Assembly (NCBI GenBank): GCA_964651695.1
Contig: CAZYYP010000003.1
Coordinates: 1-49,584, forward strand
Length of the DNA: 49,584 nt
Source of the DNA: an uncultured Gaiellales bacterium
GTDB lineage: Bacteria; Actinomycetota; Thermoleophilia; Gaiellales; JALYLC01
Direction of reading: 5' to 3'
Shown: positions 8,561-40,930 of the stretch, piece after piece
How the letters are laid out: every line of letters begins with the position of its first letter
How positions within the stretch are numbered: the first letter of the stretch is position 1
The notes under the pieces: generated by a model
Seen by the model: the letters and a program-made list of their open reading frames with translations, nothing else
Database searches by the model: none
What the model was told of the DNA's origin: nothing
Program-made: the position numbers and the translations under genes

Positions 8561-8577
8561 GGCGAGACTCTCCCTTC

Positions 8578-8973: not shown

Positions 8974-9004
8974 GCTGACCTCGTTTCTTGTCGTCAGGGG
9001 ACCG

Positions 9005-10189: not shown

Positions 10190-10198
10190 GGCTCTCTC

Positions 10199-15494: not shown

Positions 15495-15527
15495 CGCGCC
15501 TCCTCTTGCGTGTCAGGCCGCCTGATA

Positions 15528-18468: not shown

Positions 18469-18477
18469 GAATCGCTC

Positions 18478-19518: not shown

Positions 19519-20396
19519 GTGGAGCTCCTCTCCTTCGCGAATTGGGCGGCGGTCGTCTCGTAGGCGCGCCGGAAGATGACCCCCAGCGGCTGGTTGCGCA
19601 GCTCCTCGGACAGCACCTCGACGCCCCACGGGCCGTCGTAGCCGCACTCCCGGCAGACCTCGATGTAGGAGCGGAGGTCGAACTCGCCCTCGCCGGGCAG
19701 GCGACGATGGTTGACGGTCTCGTCGACGAGGTCGTCCATGTCCTCGCGCCGGCCGTCGCTCAGCTCGACCCAGGACAGGTACTCGGACGGGATCCGCCGC
19801 AGCTCGCCCGGCGCGATCCCGAGCTTGCTCATGTGCCACGTGTCGATCGCGATGCCGCCATTCGCAGCGCCCGCCCCCGCGACGACGGCCAGGGCGGAGT
19901 CGACGCTCCGCACGTTCACGTCGAACGGCATGAACTCGTAGACGATCTTCGCGTCGGTGCGCTCGGCGGCCTCGGCGCAGAGCTCGCCGAAGCGCTCGGC
20001 GAGCCGCGGGATCCCGCACGGCGTCCCCGGGATGTTGCCGATCTTGATGTGGTGGGCGCCGAGCGCCCCCGCGGCTGCGAGCAGCAGCTCGCGGGTCGCA
20101 TCGGACGCAGCTCGGCGTTCGTCGCCCGGGTCGAGGAACCAGTCCATGAGGAACTCGAGCTCCAGGTGCTGCAGCCCGTTGTCGTCGAAGACCTTCTTCA
20201 TCTCCGCGAGGCTGCGCGTCTCGAGCACGTGCTGGAGGTCGGCGTGCCAGATCCCGATGCCGCTGAACCCGACCTCCCGCGCCTGCGCACAGCGATCGGC
20301 CCAGTCGAACAGGCTCCACTCGCGCCCGACGTGCACCTCGACCGGACCGGAGACCGTCCAGTAGAGGGCGACGAGCTCTGCGTCCGGCGCGCTCAC
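19515..20396 (-). CDS. Xylose-isomerase-like TIM-barrel protein (sugar phosphate isomerase/epimerase/dehydratase family)
   Basis: GTG at 20396 overlaps the LigM-like stop as GTGA and is in frame with ORF 19515..21122. Family pattern seen: ...HIKIGNIPG..., DTWHM, RRLPGEGEFDLRSYIEVCRECGYDGPWGVEVLSEE. Confidence 0.8.
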   Translation of the reverse strand: MSAPDAELVALYWTVSGPVEVHVGREWSLFDWADRCAQAREVGFSGIGIWHADLQHVLETRSLAEMKKVFDDNGLQHLELEFLMDWFLDPGDERRAASDATRELLLAAAGALGAHHIKIGNIPGTPCGIPRLAERFGELCAEAAERTDAKIVYEFMPFDVNVRSVDSALAVVAGAGAANGGIAIDTWHMSKLGIAPGELRRIPSEYLSWVELSDGRREDMDDLVDETVNHRRLPGEGEFDLRSYIEVCRECGYDGPWGVEVLSEELRNQPLGVIFRRAYETTAAQFAKERSST

Positions 20397-21760
20397 TTGG
20401 GGCGGTACGAGGCGCGGACGACCTCGGCGTACGGGACGGGCGAGACGGTGGCCCGGATCTCCGTCTGCACATGGCGCTCGACGACGGGCTTGGCCGAGCC
20501 GCCGCCCTCCTCGCCCCAGACGAGCACGACCTCGGTGCCCGGCTCGCTCTGCGCGACGTCGACGACGGCGAGCGAGAGCATCGAGCTCTCGTTGGAGCTG
20601 TAGCCGGAGAACGTCGAGACGCCCACCATCTCGCCGTCCTTCATGATCCTGTCGTTGGGCCAGGTGGAGTAGTTGGAGAGGGGGAGGTCGATGTACTTGG
20701 CCCTGTCGCCCTTGTGGAACATCGTCTCCATCGCGCGCGCGACGTCCTCGCCGTGCCACGCGAGCGTGACCTTCTTGCGCGGCGGAGCGGCGGCCATCCG
20801 CTCGAGCGCGGCGCGGCCGATGAACTCGTGGTCGAACTTGACGAAGCCGCCGTAGCCGAGGTCGTACGGCGTCAGGTAGTAGTCGGAGATGTCGTCCGAG
20901 TAGTAGCTGCCGCCGAGCGAGCCCGTGCCCTCGTACCCGTCGGCGGGCAGCCAGCTGCGGTAGGCCTTCATGTCGTCGCCCGTGAAGATCGCCGGCAGCG
21001 GGCACGGGATCCAGCCCGACTCCAGCGTGTTCGTGGCGTAGACGCGCGAGCCCACCTGCCGGAGCCCGAACTCCGCGCCTGCGGCCACGATCGCGGCCTT
21101 GACCTCGGCGCCCTCGTCCCACGGGCCGAACAGCTCGAGGCCCGGAACGCCCGACATGCCGTGATGGAGGGCGCGCACGGCGTGGCCGGCGATCGTGATC
21201 TCGCCCATGTTGAAGAACTTGATCTCGGGCAGAGGGCCGCCGTTGGCCTTCTCCAGCACCTCGAGCGCGGTCGGGCCTTGCACCTGGTAGCGGTAGATCC
21301 TGCGATTGCCCTTGTTGACGGCCGCGCGCTCGTCGCGCTCGCAGGTCGCGTCGTAGTCGCCCGTCTCGCAGTGGTACTGCACCCAGTTGTGCGCCGAGGG
21401 CCGCCCGACGAGGCTGAGCAGGTTCTCGTCGAGGTAGAAGAGGATCGCGTCGCCGATCACGTAGCCGTCGTAGTTGGTCGCGACGAATTGCTTGGCCTTG
21501 TCGACGGCGAAGTTCTCGAAGCTGTTGACGCCGAGGTCGGACAGCAGCCGGATCGCATCCGGGCCATGGATGTACAGATCGGTCATATGGTACGACTGAT
21601 CGAAGAGGCAGCTCGTCGCGCGCCAGGCGTGCTGCTCGTCGCGCCAGTTCGTGAACTCGCTCGCATACCCCGGATAGACGTATGGGCCGATCTGCGAGTT
21701 GCGCGCGAGGTCGACGGGACTCCGGGTCACCAGCACGTCTTCCAGGCTTCGCGAACTCAT
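20393..21760 (-). CDS. ligM: Tetrahydrofolate-dependent aromatic O-demethylase, LigM-like (GcvT/aminomethyltransferase family)
   Basis: From ATG 21760: MSSRSLEDVLVTRSPVDLARNSQIGPYVYPGYASEFTNWRDEQHAWR...LFDQSYHMTDLYIHGPDAIRLLSD...KFFNM...LHHGMSGVPGLELFGPW...NTLESGWIPCPLPAIFTGDDMKAYRSWLPA...GYGGFVKFDHEFIGRAALE...KKVTLAW...VSPVPY. As I remember it, this tracks Sphingobium SYK-6 LigM block by block. The alternative ATG at 21772 sits flush against its SD. Confidence 0.8.
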   Translation of the reverse strand: MSSRSLEDVLVTRSPVDLARNSQIGPYVYPGYASEFTNWRDEQHAWRATSCLFDQSYHMTDLYIHGPDAIRLLSDLGVNSFENFAVDKAKQFVATNYDGYVIGDAILFYLDENLLSLVGRPSAHNWVQYHCETGDYDATCERDERAAVNKGNRRIYRYQVQGPTALEVLEKANGGPLPEIKFFNMGEITIAGHAVRALHHGMSGVPGLELFGPWDEGAEVKAAIVAAGAEFGLRQVGSRVYATNTLESGWIPCPLPAIFTGDDMKAYRSWLPADGYEGTGSLGGSYYSDDISDYYLTPYDLGYGGFVKFDHEFIGRAALERMAAAPPRKKVTLAWHGEDVARAMETMFHKGDRAKYIDLPLSNYSTWPNDRIMKDGEMVGVSTFSGYSSNESSMLSLAVVDVAQSEPGTEVVLVWGEEGGGSAKPVVERHVQTEIRATVSPVPYAEVVRASYRPK

Positions 21761-21936
21761 GGCTGCGTGCATCTCCTCATCGAGAATCGCCGGGGTGTGG
21801 CGAGCTGGCCGGCCCGGTGCGAGGGCCTGCATGCGCCTGCCGTCGTCGGGCGGCGCCGCTCCGGACTCTCTCAGGGCATTGCCCGTTTGTCAAGACACCG
21901 TTCCGACAACTGGAACAGGGAGTAGGATAGGCCTCG

Positions 21937-23925: not shown

Positions 23926-24820
23926 GATCGAGCGACTCGCGCTCGCGGACGCCGTCGCGATCGACTTCCACACGCACGTCGAGATGTCGCAGGCGGGCGG
24001 CGACTCGCTCCCCGACGAGCTGCGCGAGGCCGCCGTGCGCCACTTCCGCGGCGAATCGGCGCGCCCGACGGCCGAGGAGCTCGCGACGTACTACCGCGAG
24101 CGCCGCATGATGGCCGTGATCTTCACGGTCGACTCCGAGTCCTTCACGGGCCAGGAGCGCGTGCCGAACGAAGAGATCGCCGAGGTCGCGCGGGCCAACT
24201 CCGACGTCCTCATCCCGTTCGCGAGCATCGACCCGCACAAGGGCAAGCGCGGCGTCGACGAGGCGCGCCGGCTGATCGCCGAGCACGGCGTGCGCGGCTT
24301 CAAGTTCCACCCCAACGTCCAGGGCTTCTTCCCGAACGACCGCATGGCCTACCCGCTCTACGAGGCGATCGAGGAGGCGGGCCTGCCGGCGCTCTTCCAC
24401 ACCGGGCAGTCAGGCGTCGGCACGGGCCTCCCGGGCGGCGGCGGCATCCGGCTCAAGTACTCGAACCCGATCCACGTGGACGACGTCGCGGTCGACTTCC
24501 CGCGCCTCAAGATCGTGCTCGCCCACCCGTCGTTCCCGTGGCAGGACGAGGCGATCGCCGTGGCCGTGCACAAGCCGCAGGTCTACATCGACCTCTCCGG
24601 CTGGTCGCCGAAGTACTTCCCGCCGCAACTCGTCCACCACGCCAACACGCTGCTGCGCGACCGCGTGCTGTTCGGCACCGACTACCCGTTCATCACCCCC
24701 GATCGCTGGCTCGCGGACTTCGCCAAGCTCGAGATCAAGCCGGAGGTGCGTCCACTGATCCTGAAGCAGAACGCGATGCGCCTGCTCGGGCTGGAACTAC
24801 CGGAGGGTCCGCATGCCTGA
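23918..24820 (+). CDS. Amidohydrolase-2 family metal-dependent hydrolase/decarboxylase (LigI/LigW/ACMSD-type fold)
   Basis: GTG at 23918 is in frame with ORF 23840..24820 and overlaps the ligase stop by 8 nt (GTGCCTGA). Motifs AIDFHTHVE, FKFHPNVQGF, ALFHTGQ, KIVLAHPSFPW, LFGTDYPF. Confidence 0.85.
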   Translation: MPEIERLALADAVAIDFHTHVEMSQAGGDSLPDELREAAVRHFRGESARPTAEELATYYRERRMMAVIFTVDSESFTGQERVPNEEIAEVARANSDVLIPFASIDPHKGKRGVDEARRLIAEHGVRGFKFHPNVQGFFPNDRMAYPLYEAIEEAGLPALFHTGQSGVGTGLPGGGGIRLKYSNPIHVDDVAVDFPRLKIVLAHPSFPWQDEAIAVAVHKPQVYIDLSGWSPKYFPPQLVHHANTLLRDRVLFGTDYPFITPDRWLADFAKLEIKPEVRPLILKQNAMRLLGLELPEGPHA

Positions 24821-25925
24821 CAAACGACCGGTCGTCGTCTACGGGGCGAGCGGCTTCTCGGCCCGGCTGATCATCGAGTTCCTGCGCGAGTACAACGTGC
24901 CGTTCGTGGCCGCGGGCCGCAACCGCACGCGCATCGAGGAGGTGCTCGCTCACGTGCCCGGCATCGGCACCGCCGACTACGAGATCGTCGAGGTCGCGCA
25001 CGACGTCGATGCCCTGGCGGGGGTGCTGGATGGCGCAACGGTCGTCTGCAACACCGTCGGTCCGTGCATCTACCACGGCTCGACCGTCGCGGAGGCCGCG
25101 CTCAAGGCCGGCTGCCACTACGTCGACACCGGCGGCGAGGCTCCCTGGGTGCGGCTCGCGTGCGAGCAGTGGGGAGCGAAGTTCGCCGCGGCCGGCCTGC
25201 TGCTCGCGCCCGCCACGGCCTACATGTCCGCCGTCGCCGAGGCCTGCGCGCGCATCGCGATGGAGCGGTCGCCGGGAATCGACTCGCTCGAGATCCTCTC
25301 GATGTTCAACGGCTTCCCGACCTACGGCTCGACCCAGACGATCTTCGGCCAGCTCCAGTGGGAGTCGTTCTACCTCGAGCAGAACGAGTACAAGCTCTGG
25401 CCCCCGGTGACGACGCTCGAGGTGACCATCCCGAGCGCGATCACGACCCAGCTCGCGCTGCCGTGGGGCGGCTTCCCGCACCCGGTGTGGTTCAAGGACA
25501 GCCCGCAGATCGCGAACGTGCGGGCCTTCGGCGGCCTGCTCGACCGCACGATCATGGAGGGCATCGTCGCGGGCCAGCAGAGCTACCAGGACAGCATCCG
25601 CGCGCTGCCGGCCGACGAGCAGCGGCGCGTGCTCGCCGAGATCGCCGACTCGATGCAGCCGGGCCTCCCCCCGCGCGAGAACCGGCGCATGCAGCGCACG
25701 GTGGACGTCGTCATCGGTCGCGGCAGCCTCGAGACCGTGCGGGTCTCGGCGCACGGGCAGGGCGCCTATCTGCAGACCGGCCTGATCCAGGCCTTCGCCG
25801 CCCACCACCTCGTGCACCAGCCGCCGCGCACGGTGGGCTTCGCGTCGCCGGGCGAGGCCTTCGGCCACCACGAGATCCTGGCTGCGCTCGAGGCCTACGG
25901 CTTCGTCCGCGTCGAGATCGGCTAA
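24813..25925 (+). CDS. Saccharopine-dehydrogenase-like NAD(P)-binding protein
   Basis: MPDKRPVVVYGASGFSARLIIEFLREYNVPFVAAGRNRTRIEEVL is a Rossmann fold of the saccharopine dehydrogenase / trans-acting enoyl reductase type. The ATG overlaps the upstream stop by 8 nt (ATGCCTGA). Confidence 0.7.
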   Translation: MPDKRPVVVYGASGFSARLIIEFLREYNVPFVAAGRNRTRIEEVLAHVPGIGTADYEIVEVAHDVDALAGVLDGATVVCNTVGPCIYHGSTVAEAALKAGCHYVDTGGEAPWVRLACEQWGAKFAAAGLLLAPATAYMSAVAEACARIAMERSPGIDSLEILSMFNGFPTYGSTQTIFGQLQWESFYLEQNEYKLWPPVTTLEVTIPSAITTQLALPWGGFPHPVWFKDSPQIANVRAFGGLLDRTIMEGIVAGQQSYQDSIRALPADEQRRVLAEIADSMQPGLPPRENRRMQRTVDVVIGRGSLETVRVSAHGQGAYLQTGLIQAFAAHHLVHQPPRTVGFASPGEAFGHHEILAALEAYGFVRVEIG

Positions 25926-25942: not shown

Positions 25943-26686
25943 CTACGTCTCGTCGCGCAGCTGCTCGAGCCACTCGGCGGCAGCCGTCGCGACGCGCGGC
26001 TCGACCCCCAGCTCCTCGACGTAGGCCGCAGCGGCGCGCATCTCGTCCACCCTCCGCGCCGCGTGCGTGCGCGAGCCCGAGAGCAGCCGCTCGAGCAGCG
26101 GCTCGCCGAGCACGCCGGCGATGTCCGCGCGCACGTGCCCCTCGACGCCCGCGACGCGCGCGGCCTCGATGCTCTCGATCGCGGCCGCCGCGATGCCCTT
26201 CATGAACACGCTGCGCACGAGCTTGAGCCCGGCGGCGTCGCCCGGTCGCTCCCCCACCACCTCGACCGGCATGCCCAGCGGCCGGAAGAGCTCGGCGAAG
26301 CGCTCCGCCCCGGCGCCGGAGGCGAGCGCGGGGATCGCGAGGCCGTGGCCCGGGACGACGCCGGTGAGCGCGACGTCCGCGAAGCACACCGGCAGCGCGG
26401 CGGCGAGGTCGCGCTTGAGCTGCGGCGCGGCCGTGTTGAGATCGGCGAAGAGCGCGTGCTCCGCGAGTTCGCCCGCGACACGCCTCGCCGCCTCGAGGGC
26501 GTGGGCCGCGGTCGTGAGGCTGAGAACGACGTCGGCGCCCCTGACGGCCTCGAGGTCGCTCGCCGCGTTCGGGATCCCCTCCGGGCGCCGGGCGGGATCC
26601 CACGCCCGCACGCTGCAGCCGGCCGCGACCAGGTCGGCTGCGATCAGGCCCCCGGCCTCGCCGAGCCCGAGCACCGCGACCTGCAT
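25943..26686 (-). CDS. NAD(P)-binding dehydrogenase (6-phosphogluconate/3-hydroxyisobutyrate dehydrogenase-like N-domain plus DUF1932-like C-domain)
   Basis: MQVAVLGLGEAGGLIAADLVAAGCSVRAWDP (GxGxxG), 247 aa. The start shares 1 nt with the upstream stop (TGATG). Confidence 0.7.
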   Translation of the reverse strand: MQVAVLGLGEAGGLIAADLVAAGCSVRAWDPARRPEGIPNAASDLEAVRGADVVLSLTTAAHALEAARRVAGELAEHALFADLNTAAPQLKRDLAAALPVCFADVALTGVVPGHGLAIPALASGAGAERFAELFRPLGMPVEVVGERPGDAAGLKLVRSVFMKGIAAAAIESIEAARVAGVEGHVRADIAGVLGEPLLERLLSGSRTHAARRVDEMRAAAAYVEELGVEPRVATAAAEWLEQLRDET

Positions 26687-27306
26687 CAGTCGCCTTCGAC
26701 GAGCGCCCGGAGCCCCTGCAGGTCATAGGAGAGCTCCCCCGCCGCATACCGCACGCGCATCGCCCGCTCGCGCTCCTCGCGCTCGAGCGCGAGCGGCCGC
26801 ACCTCGTTCATCCGCTCGGCCGGGAGCGCCAGCGCGCCGTCGCAGTCCATCACGACGAGGTCGCCCGGGCGGATGGCGGCACCGCCGATCGCGACCGGGA
26901 CGTCGAGTTGCCCCACCCCGCCCTTGGTCGCGCCCGAGGCGCGCACCCAGCGCGCCCAGATCGGCAGGCCGATGGAGACGAGCTCGTCGAGGTCGCGGAC
27001 GGCGCCGTCGACGAGCATCCCCGCGGCGCCCTGCTCCCGGGCCTGCGTGGCGAGCAGCTCGCCGATGAACGCGATCGGCGCGGGCTCGGCCGAGGTGAGC
27101 ACGAGGATGTCGCCCGGCTGCGCGTGGGCGATGACGGCGTGCACCATCGTGTTGTCGCCGGGCGTGCAGACGGCGATGCGCGCGGGGCCGGCGACGCGCG
27201 ATCCGGGGACGACCTGGGTCAGCGGGAGGTCGACGACACCGGTGCGGCCCGCGGCCTCGTGCACGGTCGAGACACCGAGCCTGGCGAAGACGGCGTAGTC
27301 GGTCAC
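26686..27306 (-). CDS. RraA-fold class II aldolase, 4-carboxy-4-hydroxy-2-oxoadipate / HMG aldolase type (LigK/GalC-like)
   Basis: GTG at 27306 overlaps the upstream stop as GTGA and is in frame with ORF 26686..27480. Sequence VTDYAVFARLGVSTVHEAAGRTGVVDL...CTPGDNTMVHAVIAHAQPGDILVL...GELLATQAREQGAAGMLVDGAVRD...PIWARWVRASGATKGG. Confidence 0.8.
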   Translation of the reverse strand: MTDYAVFARLGVSTVHEAAGRTGVVDLPLTQVVPGSRVAGPARIAVCTPGDNTMVHAVIAHAQPGDILVLTSAEPAPIAFIGELLATQAREQGAAGMLVDGAVRDLDELVSIGLPIWARWVRASGATKGGVGQLDVPVAIGGAAIRPGDLVVMDCDGALALPAERMNEVRPLALEREERERAMRVRYAAGELSYDLQGLRALVEGD

Positions 27307-28016
27307 AGCGCGTCCAGCACGACGGGGATCTCGCGCATGAACGCCTCGGCGTAGCGGATGCCGCTGCGGCCCGAGATCCGCCGTGCGTGGTTGGCGCGGT
27401 GCTCCCCGCGCTCCGCGTAGTACTGCTTGAGGTAGCCCTGGGCGCCCATCGCCTCCATCGCGGCGAGCTTCCTCGGCCACACGGGCGTGATGTCGAGGAA
27501 CGTGGTCGGCACGAAGCCGCAGAGCTCGGGCTGGTGGGGCTCGAAGATCAGGAGCTCGGGCGGCGCGATCGTCTTGAATGCGCTCGCGACGCCGGCGCCG
27601 CTCGCCAGCTGCCGGGCTTGCACGGTCGCATCGTGCGCGACGCCGTGATCGGGGTTGAACGGGTCGAGCGCGGCGTGCGTGAGGATCAGCCGCGGCTCGA
27701 GCTCGCGGATCAGATCCGTCAGCAGCTCGACGGCGGCCGCGTCCATGACGAGCGGATAGTCGCCGAGGTCGAGGCTGCGGAAGTCCGCGCCCAGCGCGGT
27801 CGCCGCCGCCAGCGCCTCCTGGTGCCGGATCTCCTTGACGCGCTGCTCGGTCTGCCCCGCCTGTTTCCAGAGCTCGCCCGACTCGCCGCGCTCGCCGTAG
27901 GAGAGCGAGACGATGTGCACCGTGCCGCCGGCCTCGACGACCGTCGCGATCGCGCCCGCCGCGCGCCAGACGAAGTCGGCCGAGTGGGCGCTCACGACGA
28001 GGGCGGTCTTAGGCAC
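27303..28016 (-). CDS. PIG-L/LmbE-fold zinc enzyme, GalB-like (putative 4-oxalomesaconate hydratase)
   Basis: GTG start at 28016. MPKTALVVSAHSADFVWRAAGAIATVVEAGGTVHIVSLSYGERGES...DPFNPDHGVAHD carries the PIG-L metal motif (HxxD ... H). The gene sits immediately upstream of a LigK/GalC-type aldolase, as in the P. putida gal cluster. Confidence 0.7.
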   Translation of the reverse strand: MPKTALVVSAHSADFVWRAAGAIATVVEAGGTVHIVSLSYGERGESGELWKQAGQTEQRVKEIRHQEALAAATALGADFRSLDLGDYPLVMDAAAVELLTDLIRELEPRLILTHAALDPFNPDHGVAHDATVQARQLASGAGVASAFKTIAPPELLIFEPHQPELCGFVPTTFLDITPVWPRKLAAMEAMGAQGYLKQYYAERGEHRANHARRISGRSGIRYAEAFMREIPVVLDAL

Positions 28017-28908
28017 CGGCGAGCATTCTCGTGTTGGCGACCGCCATGGTGCGGATGTCGTCCTCGGCGAACCCGGCCTCGAGCAGGCGGTCGGCCATCA
28101 GCGCCAGTCCATCCTCGACCGGCGGGTTCGCGACCTGGCCGAGGTCGGTGGAGAGCACGTTGACGGCCGGCCCGGTGGCCCGGATCGCCTCGAACGTCGC
28201 CTCCCAGGACACCTTGCCGGTGTGGATCGGCGCGAAGCAGCGCTCGAGCAGCGCGCCCTGCCGTGCGAGCTCCCGCTGCTCGTCGACGGGCACGCCCTGG
28301 GTCGGGTAGTCGGGGTGGGTCACGACGACGCGGGCGACGCCCGCCGCGAGCGCGGCATCGACGGCCATGTGGATCTCGGCGCGCCCGAGGTGCCCGGTTG
28401 CGAGCACGAGGTCGTGCCGGGCGACGACCGCGAGCACCGGCGCGAGCGCCGCGGGCGTGACGGGTACCGGCCCGCCGGCGACCCCGGCGGCCTCGAACTC
28501 GTTCTGGATCGTGCGCCACACGGGCTGCTTGGCGGGCTTCGGGCCATCCTCACCGGCCTCGTTCTCGGAGTCGACGGTCGGCAGCCAGACGATCCTGGCG
28601 CCCCCGCGCGCGGCGATCTCGACCGCCTGCGCGTTGAGCCCGCCGACGCCCGCGTTGAGCGCGATCGCCCCGAGCGCGTCCACACCCGGCACTGCCGCCC
28701 GCACGACCGCGGCGCGCTCCGCCGTCGGGACGTAGTGCGACTTGAGCACGAAGCCCGCGAGCCCGAGCTCGGCGAAGCGGCGCGCGAGCGAGAGGTCGTC
28801 GATGCGGCGCTTCGCGAGGTCCGGCTCGACGTGGACGTGGAGGTCGTAGGCCCCGCGGACGAGCTCCCGCGCGCGGGAGCTCGGCTCAGTGGCCGGCGCT
28901 GCGGGCAA
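28009..28908 (-). CDS. Uncharacterised amidohydrolase-fold (HxH) protein
   Basis: TTG at 28908 is the only start codon upstream of the DLHVHVEPD metal motif, with GGAGGA about 9 nt upstream. VLKSHYVPTAERA, VWLPTVDS and VVVTHPDYP suggest a TIM-barrel metallohydrolase. I do not recognise any characterised homologue. Confidence 0.55.
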   Translation of the reverse strand: MPAAPATEPSSRARELVRGAYDLHVHVEPDLAKRRIDDLSLARRFAELGLAGFVLKSHYVPTAERAAVVRAAVPGVDALGAIALNAGVGGLNAQAVEIAARGGARIVWLPTVDSENEAGEDGPKPAKQPVWRTIQNEFEAAGVAGGPVPVTPAALAPVLAVVARHDLVLATGHLGRAEIHMAVDAALAAGVARVVVTHPDYPTQGVPVDEQRELARQGALLERCFAPIHTGKVSWEATFEAIRATGPAVNVLSTDLGQVANPPVEDGLALMADRLLEAGFAEDDIRTMAVANTRMLAGA

Positions 28909-29869
28909 GGAGCACGTCCTCCTCGGGCACCGGCGGCGTGCCCTTGATGTGGAACGACGCGACCGTCTGCATCCCCCACGCCTGCCCCTTGGCGCGCTCC
29001 GCCTGCGTCCAGACGACGGGCTCGTGCGCGGGGTCGAAGATCAGGAACCCGCCGGCGCAGACCTCGATGCGGTTGCCGCCCGGCTCGTAGGTGTAGAGGA
29101 AGAACGTCTGCTGGATCGCGTGCTTGTGTGGCCCCGACTCCATCACGATGCCGTGCTCGAGGAAGATGTCGGCCGCCCGTAGCACGTCCTCGCGCTGATC
29201 CACGAAGAACGCGAGGTGGTGCAGCCGGCCGCGCGTCCCCGTGACGTCGCGCGTGTAGGTGAGGTCGTACGACTTCTGGTTGGAGGCGAGCCAGACGCCG
29301 GCCTCCTTGCCGTCGTCGAGCACGATCTGCTCGGTCAGCCGCAGGCCGAGGTACTGCTCGCAGAAGACGCGGTTCTCGCCCGGATCGACGGCCAGGAAGT
29401 TGACGTGGTCGAGATGGCGCACGCCGACGCCGCGCCCCGGGTAGCGCTGCGGCTGGTTCTTGAGCGCGGGCCGCAGCTCCGGCGGCGCGACGTACCGCTC
29501 GGACTCGTAGAACAGCTCGATCCGGTGACCGTCGGGATCCAGGAAGCTGTACGCCCGGCCGTGACCGAGATCGCCGTCGATCCAGCCGCCCCCGCTGGCG
29601 CCCGCCTCGAGCTCGGCGACGCGCCGCTCCAGCGCCTCCGGGCTGTGCGTGCGGTACGCGAGGTGCCCGACGCCCGACTGCGGGGAGGCCGTGAGCTTGA
29701 GCGACGAGCGCTCGTAGTCGCCGAACCCACGCAGGTAGACCGAGTCGCCGTGCTCCCCGGAGATCTCCATGCCCAGGATCTCCCGGAAGTAGAACAGGCT
29801 CTCCTCGGGCTTCGGCGTCAGGAGCTCGACGTGGGAGAGGTGCGCGATGTCGCGCACGTGCTCGCTCAC
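28886..29869 (-). CDS. Type I (vicinal-oxygen-chelate) extradiol ring-cleavage dioxygenase, catechol 2,3-dioxygenase family
   Basis: GTG at 29869 overlaps the GMC stop as GTGA and is in frame with ORF 28886..31564. Metal-ligand contexts RHLDHVNFLA, RLHHLAFFVD and FLYTYEPGGNRIEV are present, plus GPHKHAIQQ. Two-domain size of 327 aa. Confidence 0.9.
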   Translation of the reverse strand: MSEHVRDIAHLSHVELLTPKPEESLFYFREILGMEISGEHGDSVYLRGFGDYERSSLKLTASPQSGVGHLAYRTHSPEALERRVAELEAGASGGGWIDGDLGHGRAYSFLDPDGHRIELFYESERYVAPPELRPALKNQPQRYPGRGVGVRHLDHVNFLAVDPGENRVFCEQYLGLRLTEQIVLDDGKEAGVWLASNQKSYDLTYTRDVTGTRGRLHHLAFFVDQREDVLRAADIFLEHGIVMESGPHKHAIQQTFFLYTYEPGGNRIEVCAGGFLIFDPAHEPVVWTQAERAKGQAWGMQTVASFHIKGTPPVPEEDVLLARSAGH

Positions 29870-31311
29870 GCGAGGTACCCGTGCGGATCCGCGTGCAGAT
29901 GCCCGGCGAGGCGGTCGGCCAGCGCCATGATGGTGAGCGACGGGTTGACGGAGAGCGTGCGCGGGACGAGCGAGCCGTCGCCGACATAGAGCCGCTTGAC
30001 GTCCCAGCACTGCGCATCGGCGTCGACGACCGAGCGCTCGGGATCGCTGCCCATCCGGCACGTCCCCTGCACGTGCGTCGTCAGGAGCCCCGTCCAGCGG
30101 ACGCGCGTCGCGCCGGCCTCGGTGAGCACCGTGCGCGAGAAGTCGAGCGCGCCGTCGATGCGCGCCTGCTCGCGCTCGTTGAACGCCGCCTCGAACGACT
30201 CCCCGCCGTTCTCGTCCAGCGACACGCGGCCGTTGTTCTCGTCGTTGACCATCGCGAGCAGGCCGATCCAGTGGCGGAAGCCCCGCACCGCCTCGACGAG
30301 CGCCGATCCCCAGAGCGGGCCGTCCTCGTCCTCGAGCGTCGTCGCGAAGCCGATGGGATCCTGGATCGTCGTCGCCTCGACGACGAAGCCGCCGTCCTCG
30401 TCGTGCTGGTGCCGCATCGCGTGCGCGGTGATCGGATACACCATGTGCGCGTCCTGCGGCTCGTCGAACAGCCCGTACACGAGGCGCGCCGGATGGAAGC
30501 CGAGATTGCGGCCGACCAGGCGGCTGCTCGGGCTGTCGGGCAGGCCCGAGCGCATCAGCAGCTGCGGCGTGTTGAGCGTGCCGCCCGCGACCACGACGGC
30601 ACCGGCGCCGACACGCCTCGTCGTCCCGTCGCCGTCGACGTACTCGACGCCGCGGGCCTCGCCGTCCTCGATCACGACGCGGTCGACGCGGGCGCCCGCG
30701 CGCAGCTCGAGGCGGCCCGCGGCCCAGGCGTCGTGGATGTAGGTGTTGAGCGTGGACTTGCCGGCATTCGTCGGGCAGCCCTGGAGGCACGAGCCGCAGC
30801 GCATGCAGTTGCCGTCGGTGTACGAGCGCACCGGCGAGAGCTCGGCGCCGAGCGCGCGGAACGCCGGCTCCACGGTGCGCACGCTCCTCGGCCAGTCGTT
30901 CCGCTCGCGCACGCCGAGCCGCGCCTCGACGCGGTCGTAGTGCGGCGCGAGGTCGGACGGGCCGAAGGGCGCGCCGCCGGCGCCCTCGAGGCCGCTCGCG
31001 ACCCCCCACTTGGCGAAGTCGTTGGCGTGGGCGCGCAGCGCCACCTTGGTGTTGACGGTCGTACTGCCGCCCACGCAGCGACCGCCGAGCAGCGCGACCG
31101 CCCCGCCGGCCCCGCCGTCGATCAGCGCGAACCGGATCGGCCAGAAGAGGTCGTTCGTGGCCTTGGCCTCCCAGCGCGTGAAGTCGGCGGCCGTGAGATG
31201 CGGGCCCTGCTCCAGCAGGAGCACCCGCCGCCCGCGGTCGGCGAGCTCGCCCGCGACGATGCCGCCGCCCGCGCCGGAACCGACGACGACGACGTCGAAG
31301 CGCTCGCTCAT
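29866..31311 (-). CDS. GMC family FAD oxidoreductase (flavoprotein subunit of a two-subunit dehydrogenase)
   Basis: ATG at 31311 (residue 49 of ORF 29866..31455) overlaps the small-subunit stop as ATGA. MSERFDVVVVGSGAGGGIVAGELADRGRRVLLLEQG. C-terminal GTCRMGSDPERSVVD...LYVGDGSLVPRTLSVNPSLTIMALADRLAGHL. Confidence 0.9.
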   Translation of the reverse strand: MSERFDVVVVGSGAGGGIVAGELADRGRRVLLLEQGPHLTAADFTRWEAKATNDLFWPIRFALIDGGAGGAVALLGGRCVGGSTTVNTKVALRAHANDFAKWGVASGLEGAGGAPFGPSDLAPHYDRVEARLGVRERNDWPRSVRTVEPAFRALGAELSPVRSYTDGNCMRCGSCLQGCPTNAGKSTLNTYIHDAWAAGRLELRAGARVDRVVIEDGEARGVEYVDGDGTTRRVGAGAVVVAGGTLNTPQLLMRSGLPDSPSSRLVGRNLGFHPARLVYGLFDEPQDAHMVYPITAHAMRHQHDEDGGFVVEATTIQDPIGFATTLEDEDGPLWGSALVEAVRGFRHWIGLLAMVNDENNGRVSLDENGGESFEAAFNEREQARIDGALDFSRTVLTEAGATRVRWTGLLTTHVQGTCRMGSDPERSVVDADAQCWDVKRLYVGDGSLVPRTLSVNPSLTIMALADRLAGHLHADPHGYLA

Positions 31312-31670
31312 GCGATCCCCAGGTAGGACCAGTCCTTCGCCAGACGGGTGGCGAGCGGAGTATTGAAGTCGATCTCGGCCCACGCGCCCGTCGCATCGAC
31401 ACCGGGCGCGACGAAGTCGCTGTAGAAGGCCTCGATCGCGAGCGCCCGCGCCCACAGGAACGCGGGTGTGCGCACCTGCGCGGCGATGTCCCCGGCCGCG
31501 AGCGCCGCGAACGCGGCCACGGCGGCGGCACGCACCGGCGCGTCCATGCGGGCGAGCAGCGCATCGACGTAGATCTCCGGGCGCACCCGCGCCGAGCCGG
31601 GGACGATCGCGTCGCAGACGCCCGCGATCATGCGCGCAGTCTCGTCGTCGAGCACCTGCAGGTCGGCCAT
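31308..31670 (-). CDS. Gluconate-2-dehydrogenase-subunit-3-like small subunit, no Tat signal
   Basis: MADLQVLDDETARMIAGVCDAIVPGS... resembles the mature part of the small (gamma) subunits that partner GMC flavoproteins. No twin-arginine leader is present in any candidate N-terminus. The start is ambiguous (ATG at 31670, 31682 or 31700). Confidence 0.55.
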   Translation of the reverse strand: MADLQVLDDETARMIAGVCDAIVPGSARVRPEIYVDALLARMDAPVRAAAVAAFAALAAGDIAAQVRTPAFLWARALAIEAFYSDFVAPGVDATGAWAEIDFNTPLATRLAKDWSYLGIA

Positions 31671-31851: not shown

Positions 31852-32691
31852 GTGAGCTACGCGGACCGATGGACGACCGTGAAGGTCGAGATCGACGACG
31901 GTGTCGCCTGGGTCGAGCTCAACCGGCCCGAGAAGCGCAACGCGATGAGCCCGACCCTCAACGCCGAGATGGTCGAGGTCCTGCTCGCGCTCGATGCCGA
32001 CGACGACTGCGGCGTGCTCGTGCTCACCGGCGCCGGCGACTCCTGGTCGGCCGGCATGGATCTCAAGGAGTACTTCCGGGAGGTCGACGGCGGGCCGGAT
32101 CACGTGCAGCGCAGGGTGCGCCGTGACGCGGCCCTGTGGCAGTGGCGCCTCCTGCGCACCTACGCGAAGCCGACCATTGCGATGGTCAACGGCTGGTGCT
32201 TCGGTGGCGCGTTCACGCCGCTCGTCGCGTGCGACCTCGCGATCGCCGCGGACGAGGCGACGTTCGGGCTCTCCGAGATCAACTGGGGCATCCCGCCCGG
32301 CAGCGTCGTCAGCAAGGCCCTCTCGGACACGGTCGGCTCGCGCGCGGGCCTGCTCTACGTGATGACCGGCCGCACGTTCGACGGCACGCAGGCCGCGGCG
32401 ATGGGCCTCGTCAACTCGAGTGTCCCGCGCGCGCAGCTGCGCGCCGAGGTCGAGCAGCTCGCACGCGAGCTGCTGGCCAAGAACCCCGTCGTGCTGCGCG
32501 CCGCGAAGCTCGGCTACAAGCACACGGGGACGATGAGCTGGGATCAGGCCGAGGACTACCTCTACGCCAAGCTCGAGCAGTCGCAGTTCCTCGACACCGA
32601 ACGCGGCCGCGAGCACGGCCTCGGGCAGTTCCTCGACGAGAAGCGCATCAAGCCGGGCCTGCAGACCTACGAGCGCCCGGCCGAGACGTGA
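31852..32691 (+). CDS. ech: 4-hydroxycinnamoyl-CoA (feruloyl-CoA) hydratase/lyase, HCHL/Ech
   Basis: GTG at 31852 with AGGAAGG 6 nt upstream. VSYADRWTTVKVEIDDGVAWVELNRPEKRNAMSPTLNAEMVEVL...VLVLTGAGDSWSAGMDLKEYFREVD...YAKPTIAMVNGWCFGGAFTPLVACDLAIAADEATFGLSEINWGIPPG...NPVVLRAAK...EDYLYAKL...KPGLQTYER is near-collinear with Pseudomonas HCHL as I remember it. Confidence 0.9.
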   Translation: MSYADRWTTVKVEIDDGVAWVELNRPEKRNAMSPTLNAEMVEVLLALDADDDCGVLVLTGAGDSWSAGMDLKEYFREVDGGPDHVQRRVRRDAALWQWRLLRTYAKPTIAMVNGWCFGGAFTPLVACDLAIAADEATFGLSEINWGIPPGSVVSKALSDTVGSRAGLLYVMTGRTFDGTQAAAMGLVNSSVPRAQLRAEVEQLARELLAKNPVVLRAAKLGYKHTGTMSWDQAEDYLYAKLEQSQFLDTERGREHGLGQFLDEKRIKPGLQTYERPAET

Positions 32692-33134
32692 CCGCAGAGC
32701 CGCGGCTCAGCTACGTCATCGGGCGGCTCGACCGTATCCTCCGCCGTCGGCTCGCCGCGGCCGTCGAGCCGTGCGGCCTGACGCTGCCCGCCTATACCGC
32801 GCTCTCGGTGCTGCGGGCACACGACGGGCTCTCCAACGCACGGCTCGCCCGTCGCTCGCTGGTGACGCCGCAATCGATGAGCGAGGTGCTCGGACTGCTC
32901 GTCGACCGGGGCTACGTGCGGCGGCTCGCGGAACCGGGGCACGCGCGGATCATCCGCATGGAGCTGACGCGGGCCGGGAGCCGCGTGCTCGAGCGCTGCG
33001 ACGAAGCGGTCGACGCGGTCGAGCGGGCGATGCTCGGCTCGCTCGACGCCGACGAGGCGGCGGGCATCCGCGACACCCTGGCCGGCTGGGGCCGCGCGCT
33101 CGAGCATCAGCCCGCCGGGAGCACGGCCGGATGA
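32688..33134 (+). CDS. MarR family transcriptional regulator
   Basis: GTG at 32688 overlaps the ech stop as GTGA and is in frame with ORF 32136..33134. LTLPAYTALSVLRAHDGLSNARLARRSLVTPQSMSEVLGLLVDRGYVRR is the MarR winged-helix core. Confidence 0.9.
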   Translation: MTAEPRLSYVIGRLDRILRRRLAAAVEPCGLTLPAYTALSVLRAHDGLSNARLARRSLVTPQSMSEVLGLLVDRGYVRRLAEPGHARIIRMELTRAGSRVLERCDEAVDAVERAMLGSLDADEAAGIRDTLAGWGRALEHQPAGSTAG

Positions 33135-33210
33135 GCGGCGCGCGCCCGTCGTCGCTAGTCTGCGAGCCGATCATCGCTCCTGGATCCGCAACCGAGGAGG
33201 ACGGTGCCGC

Positions 33211-33939
33211 TTGAGCACGCGAGCCGAGGAGCTGCAGCGCGTCGACGACGACGAGCGGGCGACCCGTGACGCCGATCCGGCGTACTTCACCCCGGAGTAC
33301 GTCGGCACCCGCCTGCGTGCCCCGCGCAAGCCCCTGCTGCTGCTGCCGGAGCGGCTGTCGGAGCTGTCCGGCCCGGCCTTCGGGACGGACGACGTGCGCG
33401 CGAGCGACAGCGATCTCACCCAGCAGCACGACGGCGAGCCGATCGGCGAGCGCATCATCGTGAGCGGGCGCGTGCTGGGCTCGGACGGCAGGCCCGTGCG
33501 CAGCGCGCTGATCGAGATCTGGCAGGCCAACGCGGCCGGCCGCTACCACCATCAGGTCGACCAGCACCCGGCGCCGCTCGACCCGAACTTCACGGGCGGG
33601 GGCCGCGTCCTGACCGACGACGAGGGTGGCTACCGCTTCATCACCATCAAGCCCGGCGCCTATCCGTGGCGCAACCACGACAACGCATGGCGCCCGGCCC
33701 ACATCCATCTCTCGGTCTTCGGCAGCGCGTTCACCGAGCGCCTCGTGACCCAGATGTACTTCCCGGGCGACCCGCTCTTCGCCTACGACCCGATCTACCA
33801 GTCGGTGCGCGATCCCGCCGCGCGCGAGCGCATGATCAGCACGTTCGACCTCGCCTCCACGAAGCCCGAGTGGGCACTCGCGTATCACTTCGACGTGGTG
33901 CTCGGCGGGACCCTCGCAACGCCGCTGGAGAACGCGTGA
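33211..33939 (+). CDS. pcaH: Protocatechuate 3,4-dioxygenase beta subunit
   Basis: TTG start with GAGGAGG 10 nt upstream. IEIWQANAAGRYHHQVDQHPAPLDPNFTGGGRVLTDDEGGYRFITIKPGAYPWRNHDNAWRPAHIHLSVFG. Confidence 0.95.
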   Translation: MSTRAEELQRVDDDERATRDADPAYFTPEYVGTRLRAPRKPLLLLPERLSELSGPAFGTDDVRASDSDLTQQHDGEPIGERIIVSGRVLGSDGRPVRSALIEIWQANAAGRYHHQVDQHPAPLDPNFTGGGRVLTDDEGGYRFITIKPGAYPWRNHDNAWRPAHIHLSVFGSAFTERLVTQMYFPGDPLFAYDPIYQSVRDPAARERMISTFDLASTKPEWALAYHFDVVLGGTLATPLENA

Positions 33940-34472
33940 AGATCCCGCGCACGCCATCGCAGACGGTCGGGCCGTTCTTCGCATTCGCGCTCATGACGAG
34001 GCCGATGGTCGTCGCAGCCGATGCAGCGGGCGCGATCCGCATCGAGGGCCGGGTGCTCGACGGCGCCGGCGAGCCGGTGCCGGACGGGCTCGTCGAGATC
34101 TGGGGGCCCGACGGCGACGGCCGCTACACCGGCAGCGCCGGCTGGGGCCGCAGCGACACGGGACCGGACGGGGGCTACGCGTTTACGACCGTCAAGCCGG
34201 GCGCCGTGAGCGAGCCCGACGGCTGCGTCCAGGCACCGCACCTGAGCGTGCTGTGTTTCGCGCGCGGCCTGCTCAAGCCGGTGCTCACCCGCATCTACTT
34301 CCCGGACGAGTTGGAGGCGAACGCGGCGGATCCGTTGCTGCACGCGCTCTCGGACGACGAGCGCGCGACGCTCGTGGCGGAGCCGGCGGGGCCGGGCGGC
34401 TACCGCTTCGACATCCGGCTGCAGGGCGACGACCAGACCGTCTTCTTCACGACGCCGGCCTCCGGCCTGTGA
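33936..34472 (+). CDS. pcaG: Protocatechuate 3,4-dioxygenase alpha subunit
   Basis: GTG at 33936 overlaps the pcaH stop as GTGA. TPSQTVGPFFAFAL...VEIWGPDGDGRY...GGYAFTTVKPG...APHLSVLCFARGLLKPVLTRIYFPDE. Confidence 0.9.
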   Translation: MKIPRTPSQTVGPFFAFALMTRPMVVAADAAGAIRIEGRVLDGAGEPVPDGLVEIWGPDGDGRYTGSAGWGRSDTGPDGGYAFTTVKPGAVSEPDGCVQAPHLSVLCFARGLLKPVLTRIYFPDELEANAADPLLHALSDDERATLVAEPAGPGGYRFDIRLQGDDQTVFFTTPASGL

Positions 34473-35245
34473 CCTACTCGCGCATCGACGGCCCCGCGGA
34501 TGCGCCGGTGGTCGTGCTCTCCAACTCGCTCGGCACGACGCTTGCGATGTGGGAGCCGCAGCTGCCGATGCTCGCCGAGCGGTTCGCGGTGCTGCGCTAC
34601 GACCACCCGGGCCATGGCGAGGGGCGCGGGGCGGCGACGCCGCATTCGGTCGAGGACCTCGCGCGCGGCGTCCTCGCGATCCTCGACGAGCGCGAACTCG
34701 CGCGCGCGTCCTTCTGCGGCCTCTCCCTGGGAGGCGCCGTCGGCATGTGGCTCGCGATGTACGCGCCGGAGCGCATCGACCGCCTCGTGCTCGCATGCAC
34801 CTCGGCGCGCTTCGGCCTCCGCGAGAGCTGGCTCGAGCGCGCGGCCACCGTGCGGGCCGAGGGCATGGAGGCGATCGCCGACGCGGTGCTCGCGCTGTGG
34901 TTCACGCCGCAGACCCACCACGAGCGCCCCGACGTCGTGCGGGCCTACCGGGCGATGATGGTGTCGGCCGAGCCCGAGGGCTACGCGGGCTGCTGCGAGG
35001 CACTCGGCGACTGGGATCCCGGCGACGCGCTGGCGGCGATCCGCGCACCCGTGCTCGTACTCGCCGGGAGCGATGACCCGGCAGCGCCGCCTGACCGGGC
35101 CGAGGCGATCCGGGATCGCATTCCGGGCGCGCGCCTGATCGTGCTGCCGGGCGCCGGGCACATCGCCAACGTCGAGCAGCCCGAGGCCTTCGGTGACCTC
35201 CTGATCGAGCACCTGACGGCGCGCCCCGCGGTGGAGGTTGCATGA
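34469..35245 (+). CDS. pcaD: 3-oxoadipate enol-lactonase
   Basis: GTG at 34469 overlaps the pcaG stop as GTGA. VVVLSNSLGTTLAMWEPQLPMLAERFAVLRYDHPGHGE and nucleophile elbow GLSLGG. Cluster context supports the call. Confidence 0.85.
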   Translation: MTYSRIDGPADAPVVVLSNSLGTTLAMWEPQLPMLAERFAVLRYDHPGHGEGRGAATPHSVEDLARGVLAILDERELARASFCGLSLGGAVGMWLAMYAPERIDRLVLACTSARFGLRESWLERAATVRAEGMEAIADAVLALWFTPQTHHERPDVVRAYRAMMVSAEPEGYAGCCEALGDWDPGDALAAIRAPVLVLAGSDDPAAPPDRAEAIRDRIPGARLIVLPGAGHIANVEQPEAFGDLLIEHLTARPAVEVA

Positions 35246-35634
35246 GCACGGAGTCCGGTGACGACGCCTACGGGCGGGGCATGCGGATCCGGCGCGAGGT
35301 GCTCGGAGACGCGCACGTCGACGCTTCGATCGCGCGTACGACCGACTTCACCGCCGACTTCCAGGAGCTGATCACGCGTCAGGCCTGGGGTGGCATCTGG
35401 GCGCGGCCGGGCCTCGAGCGGCGCATGCGCAGCGCGATCACCCTGACGGCGCTCGTCGCGCTCGGGCGCGACGAGGAGCTGAAGATGCACGTGCGCGCAG
35501 CGCTGCGCAACGGCCTCACGCGCGACGAGATCAAGGAGGTGCTGCTGCAGACCTCCGTCTACTGCGGCGTGCCTGCCGCCAACACCGCCTTCGCGATCGC
35601 CCAGAGCGTGCTCGACGAGGAGGACTCGCCATGA
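35242..35634 (+). CDS. pcaC: 4-carboxymuconolactone decarboxylase
   Basis: ATGA overlap with pca[16 protein letters not shown]...[74 protein letters not shown]. Confidence 0.9.
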
Positions 35635-40555: not shown

Positions 40556-40930
40556 ATGCGGGAGCGGATCCTCGTCGCGATCTTCGCCGGCGGCGCCGCC
40601 GGCGGGCTGGCGCGTACGGCACTCGAGCGCGAATGGCCGGCGGACGGCCACAGCTGGCCGTGGGTGACGTTCGCCGTCAACATCGCGGGCACGGCGATCC
40701 TGGCCTACGTGGTCCTCGGGATGAGTGGCCGTCATTACGCCCGCCCGCTGCTCGGCATCGGCTTCTGCGGCGCTCTCACGACGTTCTCGACGCTGCAACT
40801 CGAAGCGCTCGAGCTGGCGCACCGGCATCACGTGTGGCTCGCGCTGGGCTACACCGCCGGAACCGTCGCCGGGGGCCTGCTCGTCGCAGGCGGCATGCGA
40901 GCGCTCATACGCCCGGCGAGGGCGTCGTGA
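40556..40930 (+). CDS. crcB: Fluoride ion channel CrcB/FluC (subunit 1)
   Basis: 124 aa with four TM segments. VAIFAGGAAGGLARTAL, TFAVNIAGTAILAY and GFCGALTTFSTLQLE are CrcB signatures. Confidence 0.9.
   Translation: MRERILVAIFAGGAAGGLARTALEREWPADGHSWPWVTFAVNIAGTAILAYVVLGMSGRHYARPLLGIGFCGALTTFSTLQLEALELAHRHHVWLALGYTAGTVAGGLLVAGGMRALIRPARAS

Follow-up and report, generated by a model that had tools for sequence, protein, structure and literature searches.

Gallate, the methylgallate formed from syringate, and tannins bring large amounts of plant carbon into soil, and the known bacterial routes for degrading them are almost entirely proteobacterial and rely on LigB-type ring-cleavage dioxygenases. 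Which pathway, then, is encoded by an operon of an uncultured Gaiellales bacterium in which homologues of the hydratase and the aldolase of gallate breakdown stand beside a dioxygenase of a different family? The operon lies in a 49,584-nucleotide stretch of contig CAZYYP010000003.1 (assembly GCA_964651695.1), which we analyzed in full and refer to as the window. We put the probability at roughly 55% that it encodes a gallate-type meta-cleavage pathway running via 4-oxalomesaconate (OMA) to pyruvate and oxaloacetate.

Genes were called from third-position GC frame analysis, the window having a G+C content of about 72%, together with inspection of starts and stops. Seven minus-strand genes were found between positions 25943 and 31670, matching an initial annotation made from the sequence alone in both coordinates and order, and the motifs which that annotation had quoted (HLDHVNF, LHHLAFF and YEPGGNRIEV in the dioxygenase, VVSAHSADF in the PIG-L protein) all occur in the encoded proteins. 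Searches of Pfam, NCBIfam and PDB sequences upheld six of its seven family calls, namely the GMC flavoprotein, the VOC dioxygenase, the HxH protein of amidohydrolase fold, the PIG-L protein, the RraA-fold protein and the DUF1932 dehydrogenase. The genes overlap at every junction (ATGA, GTGA, 8-23 nt or TGATG), a promoter and terminator scan revealed no terminator-like site inside the operon, and the seven genes are translationally coupled. Such coupling argues against chance or merely regulatory juxtaposition, in which an ordinary catechol 2,3-dioxygenase and a PIG-L deacetylase of a thiol pathway would share no common route; we consider that explanation very improbable on this and further grounds given below.

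The PIG-L protein is, by sequence, a full-length homologue of the GalB-type 4-oxalomesaconate (4-carboxy-2-hydroxymuconate) hydratase, as had been proposed. It aligned with GalB (PDB 5cgz) over residues 3-234 at 45% identity (209 bits, E 5e-61), and the next-best PIG-L structure in the PDB search reached 27 bits. The GalB motifs AHSADF, GERGES and N-x-DH are present at residues 10, 41 and 121, and His11, Asp14, Glu42, Glu45 and Asp123 are kept in 78-81 of 81 orthologues; they include the presumed Zn ligands of the PIG-L family. Membership among the mycothiol or GlcNAc deacetylases, raised at the outset as something to check, found little support. The BshB, MshB and Mca models gave 32-60 bits against cut-offs of 182-277, so that the weak BshB and MshB matches, which could be read in favor of an unrelated deacetylase, fall far below the match to GalB.

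The RraA-fold protein, initially called LigK/GalC-type, is likewise a homologue of the class II aldolases acting on HMG (4-hydroxy-4-methyl-2-oxoglutarate) and CHA (4-carboxy-4-hydroxy-2-oxoadipate), GalC/LigK, with 38% identity to the Pseudomonas putida F1 enzyme (PDB 3noj, E 1e-40). In the P. putida F1 aldolase, Arg-123 is essential, Asp-124 and Glu-199 are metal ligands and additional residues form the pocket (PMC5065237). Ten of these 11 active-site residues are retained (R21, N52, H56, G82, R104, D105, G125, K128, R176 and E180), with R104 as the essential Arg and D105 and E180 as the metal ligands; the eleventh is changed from Thr145 to Ala. Scores were below the equivalog cut-offs of NF006731 (176.9 versus 179) and TIGR02798 (ligK_PcmE; 166.7 versus 304.5), indicating a divergent member that automated rules would leave unnamed.

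Identities of 45% and 38% leave room for changed specificity in both enzymes, and the aldolase family also cleaves HMG (PMC5065237). The operon might thus act on another hydroxylated aromatic, such as pyrogallol, a 5-substituted protocatechuate or another carboxy- or alkylcatechol, by way of analogues of OMA and CHA, with the DUF1932 protein reducing or oxidizing a semialdehyde released by the aldol split. The beta-hydroxyacid-dehydrogenase-type Rossmann domain of the DUF1932 protein and the unusual Tyr of the dioxygenase clade, described next, would suit this alternative. It is at odds with the strong conservation of the GalB-like and aldolase catalytic residues, with the carboxylate-type TRAP and MFS transporters in related clusters and with the linkage of such clusters to tannase, and we judge it rather unlikely.

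The predicted ring-cleaving enzyme carries two VOC domains, as seen from two stretches matching PF00903. Its metal triad H155/H218/E269 aligns with those of HPCD, XylE-type enzymes and AphC, so that it shares fold and His/His/Glu triad with the type I extradiol enzymes (the TIGR03211 group and HPCD), and HPCD Tyr257, Trp192 and Asn157 have equivalents in Tyr259, Trp193 and Asn157. It departs from HPCD and the TIGR03211 group at one catalytic position: where HPCD has His200, the acid-base His of the second sphere, it has Tyr201. Tyr is also found at this position in the closest solved relative, PDB 9wgj, in 29 of 54 aligned cluster-linked dioxygenases (the window protein and 53 enzymes from related loci) and in no fewer than 113 of the 120 relatives of 9wgj. 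Solirubrobacterales enzymes linked to the cluster retain His here, and both Tyr-type and His-type genes adjoin PIG-L and RraA genes. The natural replacement offers a test of the role of the second-sphere His in extradiol catalysis.

Among PDB entries, 9wgj scored 407 bits, the Rhodococcus alkylcatechol enzymes 7q2a and 3lm4 (AphC) 273 bits and HPCD about 104 bits. The score of 311 bits is just short of the curated cut-off of 320.2 for the catechol 2,3-dioxygenase equivalog TIGR03211. That score, and the public annotation of relatives as 'catechol 2,3-dioxygenase', would favor an ordinary catechol enzyme placed beside the hydratase gene by chance. Its partners are nevertheless GalB and GalC homologues rather than the semialdehyde dehydrogenase or hydrolase, 4-OT and DmpFG that accompany the TIGR03211 group, and Pfam scans of the window detected no catechol meta-pathway genes (4-OT or a DmpFG-type pair).

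The clade is probably not PraA, the protocatechuate 2,3-dioxygenase, either, because the pra-like locus of Alicyclobacillus dauci, whose gene order is that of protocatechuate 2,3-cleavage, has a LigB-type gene first and the VOC gene appended after the set. This locus reads IclR, LigB, ALDH, FAA_hydrolase, DmpF, DmpG, FAA_hydrolase, 4-OT and Amidohydro_2, directly followed by a Tyr-type VOC gene, GntR and an MFS transporter. BLC23O of Bacillus ligniniphilus, compared by length only, is shorter at 283 aa than the 315-327-aa enzymes of this clade.

Using the PIG-L protein as query, we scanned a single genome for each species, obtained 577 relatives and fetched the best 80 loci (L001-L080), on which the window proteins were placed by tblastn. 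In 65 of these, termed fully flanked, at least 4.5 kb was available on both sides of the PIG-L gene. Counts are lower bounds because several loci from long-read metagenome-assembled genomes carry frameshifts. The closest PIG-L relatives, at 79-88% identity, belong to uncultured Gaiellaceae and other Thermoleophilia, and the conservation of gene order that the initial annotation had proposed to survey extends to about a dozen Gaiellales genomes, which keep all seven genes in order with the same flanks. Of the 65 fully flanked loci, 46 have a VOC gene no more than 4.5 kb away from PIG-L, and they are spread over Gaiellales, Solirubrobacterales, Rubrobacter, Citricoccus and Anaerolineales. Gene orders vary; Solirubrobacterales have GntR, DUF6282, PIG-L, RraA, VOC, and Anaerolineales PIG-L, RraA, VOC. 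The trio of dioxygenase, hydratase and aldolase is conserved over at least three phyla in several orders. With the full order repeating in Gaiellales and the core recurring across phyla, the arrangement is far beyond chance, which speaks further against mere juxtaposition, and this genomic linkage bears out the first proposal that the VOC enzyme is the candidate for ring fission.

Clusters in Bacillota bear on the substrate. The trio was present in six of nine Bacillota and Chloroflexota contexts examined, and its carriers in Bacillota are Geobacillus, Lysinibacillus, Bacillus smithii, Brevibacillus, Metabacillus and Sporosarcina. Brevibacillus fulvus has VOC, PIG-L, RraA and TRAP and no other genes; Lysinibacillus macroides has VOC, PIG-L, RraA, RidA and TRAP. 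Extradiol cleavage of gallate yields OMA directly, as in the Gal pathway, so the three-enzyme chemistry of Brevibacillus and Lysinibacillus fits gallate. Cleavage of protocatechuate instead gives a semialdehyde that is oxidized to a pyrone lactone and then hydrolyzed, as in the Lig pathway, and these minimal clusters could not process that semialdehyde. Larger sets occur in B. smithii (PIG-L, RraA, RidA, DUF1932; GntR; VOC, MFS), Metabacillus litoralis (VOC, 530-aa esterase, TRAP, GntR, MFS, PIG-L, RraA) and Sporosarcina obsidiansis (677-aa esterase; PIG-L, RraA, DUF1932, VOC). By PDB comparison the esterase of Metabacillus is a tannase, scoring 474 bits (E 7e-141) with 6yq4 and 409 bits with the Lactobacillus plantarum tannase; the one from Sporosarcina, 61% identical to it, bears SLH cell-surface domains.

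The solved relative 9wgj is a Geobacillus zalihae protein, 56% identical to the window dioxygenase by tblastn. Its gene neighbors are GntR together with DUF6282, PIG-L, RraA, DUF1932, an MFS transporter and a small esterase. The locus differs from the window in phylum, in having no GMC/small-ORF pair (ORF, open reading frame) and in its divergent dioxygenase gene, with GntR between. The PDB entry 9wgj (P0241) bears the title 'Catechol 1,2-dioxygenase', yet NCBI lists the identical protein as a catechol 2,3-dioxygenase, and it folds like a VOC (extradiol) enzyme; a few relatives also bear the 1,2-dioxygenase name. We found no paper on 9wgj in a literature search.

The minimal three-enzyme clusters, the tannase linkage and the carboxylate transporters thus favor gallate over protocatechuate, as do two features of the window, its own protocatechuate ortho branch and a nearby gene with the fold of LigM and DesA. 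Gallate, perhaps reached via syringate and 3-O-methylgallate, is therefore better supported than protocatechuate, and we depart here from the initial annotation where it entertained protocatechuate as a main substrate.

In the gallate-type pathway that we propose, the VOC dioxygenase would stand in for the class III enzymes GalA, DesB or LigAB and open gallate, perhaps also 3-O-methylgallate or protocatechuate. The GalB-type hydratase would then convert the OMA enol to 4-carboxy-4-hydroxy-2-oxoadipate, which the GalC/LigK-type aldolase would split into pyruvate and oxaloacetate. The DUF6282 and DUF1932 proteins and the Gaiellales-specific Fe-S GMC protein with its small partner would be accessory, probably funneling side products or alternative products of ring fission into OMA; candidate inputs are the lactone 2-pyrone-4,6-dicarboxylate (PDC), CHMOD as a methyl ester, and CHMS in its semialdehyde or hemiacetal form. 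We infer that the trio is an invariant gallate-type core and that the remaining genes widen or tidy its input.

This scheme resembles the gallate pathway of P. putida KT2440 (GalA dioxygenase, GalD isomerase, GalB hydratase, GalC aldolase); in the window the gene for the GalB homologue directly precedes that for the homologue of GalC and the P. putida F1 aldolase. The logic of dioxygenase, hydratase and aldolase is common to KT2440 and the minimal related clusters, and the expected products are again pyruvate and oxaloacetate. KT2440 differs in using a class III LigB-type dioxygenase, GalA, where the window has a two-domain type I VOC enzyme, and in possessing a PrpF-type OMA tautomerase, GalD, for which the window has no counterpart; the window in turn adds DUF6282, DUF1932 and the Fe-S GMC flavoprotein. 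In related clusters the gene after VOC or RraA is a small one whose family varies by lineage. Fourteen Solirubrobacterales-type loci have SnoaL_4 there, three Anaerolineales loci have it downstream of CHMI, seven Anaerolineales loci have a CHMI-type tautomerase and four Bacillota loci have RidA. These SnoaL_4, CHMI and RidA genes, none of which occurs in the window, might substitute for the OMA tautomerase GalD/LigU without being homologous to it.

The accessory proteins can also be read as parts of a protocatechuate pathway. In that alternative the VOC enzyme performs 4,5-cleavage of protocatechuate, the DUF1932 or GMC protein is a LigC analogue converting CHMS to PDC, DUF6282 is a LigI analogue, and PIG-L and RraA finish the route. 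The five recurrent enzyme types would match the reactions of LigAB, LigC, LigI, LigJ and LigK one for one, and all five are found together in Geobacillus, Rubrobacter and many Thermoleophilia. The five recurrent genes can thus be given the reaction types of the protocatechuate 4,5-pathway of Sphingobium sp. SYK-6 and Comamonas (LigAB, LigC, LigI, LigU, LigJ, LigK), the terminal aldolase family LigK is shared with the window, and the operon's neighborhood (an ECH-family gene, HCHL-like by eye, along with GCV_T and pca genes) suggests catabolism of lignin monomers. None of LigAB, LigC (Gfo/Idh/MocA family), LigU (PrpF family) or LigJ is in the window, however, and its hydratase is GalB-type where that of SYK-6 and Comamonas is the amidohydrolase LigJ. 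LigI has no detectable sequence relation to DUF6282, and the dehydrogenase candidates of the window come from other families than LigC. Consistent with the absence of canonical enzymes noted at first annotation, Pfam scans of essentially all window genes recovered no LigB (PF02900), PrpF or Gfo/Idh/MocA family member, and tblastn with a single query, which very distant relatives could escape, found no LigB-type gene in the window or the 80 loci.

DUF6282 is, by its model and conserved residues, an amidohydrolase-superfamily barrel with an N-terminal HxH and metal-type ligands. Sequence searches gave no PDB relative at E<=1 apart from a chance match to ClpC1. An AlphaFold model, built from an alignment shallower than the diverse locus set, is a (beta/alpha)8 barrel (pLDDT 79.6, pTM 0.84), with PTER, isoaspartyl dipeptidase, TatD, dihydroorotase and phosphotriesterase as top Foldseek matches, all of them enzymes of that superfamily (TMq 0.55-0.61), and 14 diverse orthologues share H24, H26, H58, H173, H198, E222 and D255 without exception. 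LigI has an amidohydrolase fold too, and a LigI-like function is possible, although membership of LigI is unsupported, no 2-pyrone-4,6-dicarboxylate hydrolase being described among the 50 Foldseek matches listed. Among the matches listed from a set of 5.8 billion proteins none exceeded 90% identity to DUF6282, and a full-text literature search returned no mention of the family.

Two kinds of dehydrogenase accompany the core. The DUF1932 protein, present in 33 of the 80 loci and in three Bacillota clusters, combines a 6PGDH-type/beta-hydroxyacid-dehydrogenase-type Rossmann domain with DUF1932, and no function is known for its best PDB matches (3qsg, 4ezb and 1i36). The GMC protein contains a ferredoxin-like motif, C169-x2-C172-x2-C175-x3-C179-P, with weak Fer4 matches over residues 163-187. 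Its nearest PDB relatives, at about 75 bits, are pyridoxine 4-oxidase, the FAD-glucose dehydrogenase alpha subunit and the fructose dehydrogenase large subunit, and the catalytic subunits of the two dehydrogenases contain Fe-S. The Cys motif and the catalytic pair His413/Asn456 are kept in 18-20 of 20 orthologues (His413/Asn456 in 18-19), and the protein is probably a dehydrogenase rather than an oxidase. FAD-glucose dehydrogenase oxidizes a cyclic hemiacetal to a lactone, a likeness that would suit the protocatechuate alternative. In Solirubrobacterales either DUF1932 or a divergent GMC/small-ORF pair occurs at the same spot immediately upstream of DUF6282, which suggests that the two are interchangeable dehydrogenases.

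The small ORF that precedes the GMC gene accompanies it in 21 loci, and its start (MADLQVLD) was set by alignment of 17 orthologues. The initial annotation had described it as a Tat-less protein resembling gluconate 2-dehydrogenase subunit 3. It indeed has no twin-arginine motif; the family assignment was not borne out, as it had no Pfam or NCBIfam match even at E<=1, no PDB match with an 18-sequence profile at E<=10, and no Foldseek match with E<4 for its all-helical AlphaFold model. The 120 homologues listed, of 3967 found in the 5.8-billion-protein search, are all 'hypothetical' and carry no Pfam domain. The resemblance to subunit 3 is one of position alone, in that its small gene lies upstream of, and coupled to, an Fe-S GMC gene.

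Across the 46 VOC-linked loci, DUF6282 was found in 32, DUF1932 in 17 and GMC in 15, and 22 had no dehydrogenase nearby. The protocatechuate alternative, for which both types would be needed, therefore meets 22 loci lacking a dehydrogenase and 14 lacking DUF6282, in addition to the minimal clusters, the tannase linkage and the pcaHG genes and remaining ortho branch already present in the window; we regard it as unlikely.

Several observations count against the gallate-type pathway as well. DUF6282 in 32 and DUF1932 or GMC in 24 of the 46 loci are more than gallate requires, which needs neither type, and DUF6282 plus a dehydrogenase would supply exactly the extra reaction types that protocatechuate, or the lactone and ester products of methylgallate cleavage, would require. 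The nearest named families of the dioxygenase are catechol and alkylcatechol 2,3-dioxygenases, and relatives in Alicyclobacillus acidoterrestris, A. dauci and Ktedonosporobacter have no PIG-L and RraA genes nearby. The window holds no candidate OMA tautomerase, and no tannase was found in it or in loci L001-L080, which are mostly from actinobacteria and Chloroflexota. Five Gaiellales loci (L013, L015, L017-L019) have the small ORF, GMC, PIG-L, RraA and DUF1932 without VOC or DUF6282. These VOC-less clusters are preceded by Zn-ADH and SDR genes, and the source of the hydratase substrate in them is explained by none of the readings considered here, a gap that lends some weight to another aromatic substrate. 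Finally, homology, active-site conservation, gene coupling and synteny across phyla are what we observed; every substrate and reaction is inferred from them.

A broader picture can be drawn more tentatively, and we hold it possible but doubtful as a whole. The clusters would represent a pathway for gallate, and possibly also for protocatechuate or 3-O-methylgallate, that is widespread among Gram-positive bacteria and Chloroflexi and whose ring-opening enzyme is a subclade of type I extradiol dioxygenases with Tyr in place of His. DUF6282 would be a PDC hydrolase or CHMOD esterase and DUF1932 a CHMS dehydrogenase, and the Fe-S GMC protein of Gaiellales with its small partner would carry out the same oxidation with a non-NAD acceptor. 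If true, this would explain how Gaiellales, Solirubrobacterales and Anaerolineales, soil lineages that are abundant yet seldom cultured, and thermophilic bacilli mineralize gallate, methylgallate and tannins, would give DUF6282 and DUF1932 their first functions, and would call for correction of many 'catechol 2,3-dioxygenase' annotations. Culturable carriers and the solved structure 9wgj make the readings directly testable. As the initial annotation had supposed, we found no description of this gene set in a full-text literature search, from which most subscription papers are absent, so that earlier work is possible. The pathway logic is known; what is new is the family of the dioxygenase, the presence of two DUF enzymes and of the Fe-S GMC pair, and the range of lineages.

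Table 1. Positions of the operon genes, other window features and selected features of related loci (L numbers)
Feature	Location	Strand	Remarks
Small conserved ORF, 120 aa	31308..31670	-	stop overlaps GMC start (ATGA)
GMC-family FAD flavoprotein, 481 aa	29866..31311	-	PF00732 3e-38; PF05199 2e-20
Two-domain type I (VOC) extradiol dioxygenase, 327 aa	28886..29869	-	TIGR03211 311 bits; PDB 9wgj 407 bits
DUF6282 protein, 299 aa, amidohydrolase superfamily	28009..28908	-	PF19799 1e-59
PIG-L-fold GalB homologue, 237 aa	27303..28016	-	PDB 5cgz 209 bits
RraA-fold class II aldolase homologue (GalC/LigK), 206 aa	26686..27306	-	PDB 3noj E 1e-40
NAD_binding_2/DUF1932 dehydrogenase, 247 aa	25943..26686	-	PF09130 1e-10; PF03446 2e-5
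GCV_T-family gene, fold of LigM/DesA	20393..21772	-	PF01571 1e-39; context, outside operon
pcaH/pcaG-like protocatechuate 3,4-dioxygenase subunits	33211..34472	+	PF00775, plus PF12391 for pcaH
Divergent operon containing pcaH and pcaG	31852-39297	+	
Convergent three-gene unit: acetoacetyl-CoA-synthetase-like AMP-binding enzyme, Amidohydro_2, Sacchrp_dh/DUF5938	21937-25925	+	
Amidohydro_2 gene of the three-gene unit	23840-24820	+	
A further GMC oxidoreductase, two E1 alpha/beta pairs in succession (2-oxoacid-dehydrogenase type), xylose-isomerase-like TIM barrel	13953-20396	-	downstream of GCV_T
Two adjacent CrcB (fluoride channel) genes	40556-41292	+	
Small genes after VOC or RraA, examples	L043 12180-12944; L047 12217-12678; L084 10454-10834		
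VOC-less Gaiellales clusters	around 8100-12100 in 20-kb loci		
Dioxygenase with the same Tyr	L081 8001-8972		
A. dauci LigB-type cluster	L086 711-8772		
M. litoralis tannase	L089 10256-11848	-	
S. obsidiansis esterase	L090 4330-6363	-	
Anaerolineales protein with two Cys motifs, example	L053 8173-9552		

The genes around the operon add context. LigM and DesA are tetrahydrofolate-dependent aryl O-demethylases, and the GCV_T gene sharing their fold could be a feeder that makes gallate or 3-O-methylgallate from syringate. It recurs near the cluster and adjoins the VOC gene in L022, L023, L031, L038 and L065. On the other side, the plus-strand operon comprises an ECH-family gene, MarR, pcaH, pcaG, an alpha/beta hydrolase, CMD, a thiolase, a FAD_binding_3 hydroxylase and Lyase_1. 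It forms a ferulate/4-hydroxybenzoate to protocatechuate ortho-cleavage island, and the window thereby encodes a complete protocatechuate ortho branch. The ECH-family gene resembles HCHL/feruloyl-CoA hydratase-lyase by eye.

The convergent three-gene unit is kept beside the cluster in Gaiellales only. Its Amidohydro_2 gene had been put forward as a possible lactone opener, a suggestion that we rejected along with membership in the core: the protein is not LigI- or LigJ-like by sequence, its best PDB match is 3irs (unknown function), its named PDB matches are weak ones to 2,3-dihydroxybenzoate decarboxylases, and it co-occurs with the cluster in Gaiellales alone. The E1 pairs and TIM-barrel gene downstream of GCV_T also recur in Gaiellales loci. 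An Rfam scan of the whole window returned no riboswitch or other RNA family at the gathering score. Three window stretches outside the Pfam scans were read by eye as MmgE/PrpD-like, enoyl-CoA hydratase-like and secreted repeat protein-like. In the Anaerolineales loci L033, L047, L053 and L057, a protein of about 440-460 aa encoded just upstream of PIG-L has two C-x2-C-x2-C-x3-C-P motifs and looks by eye like a reductive dehalogenase or epoxyqueuosine reductase.

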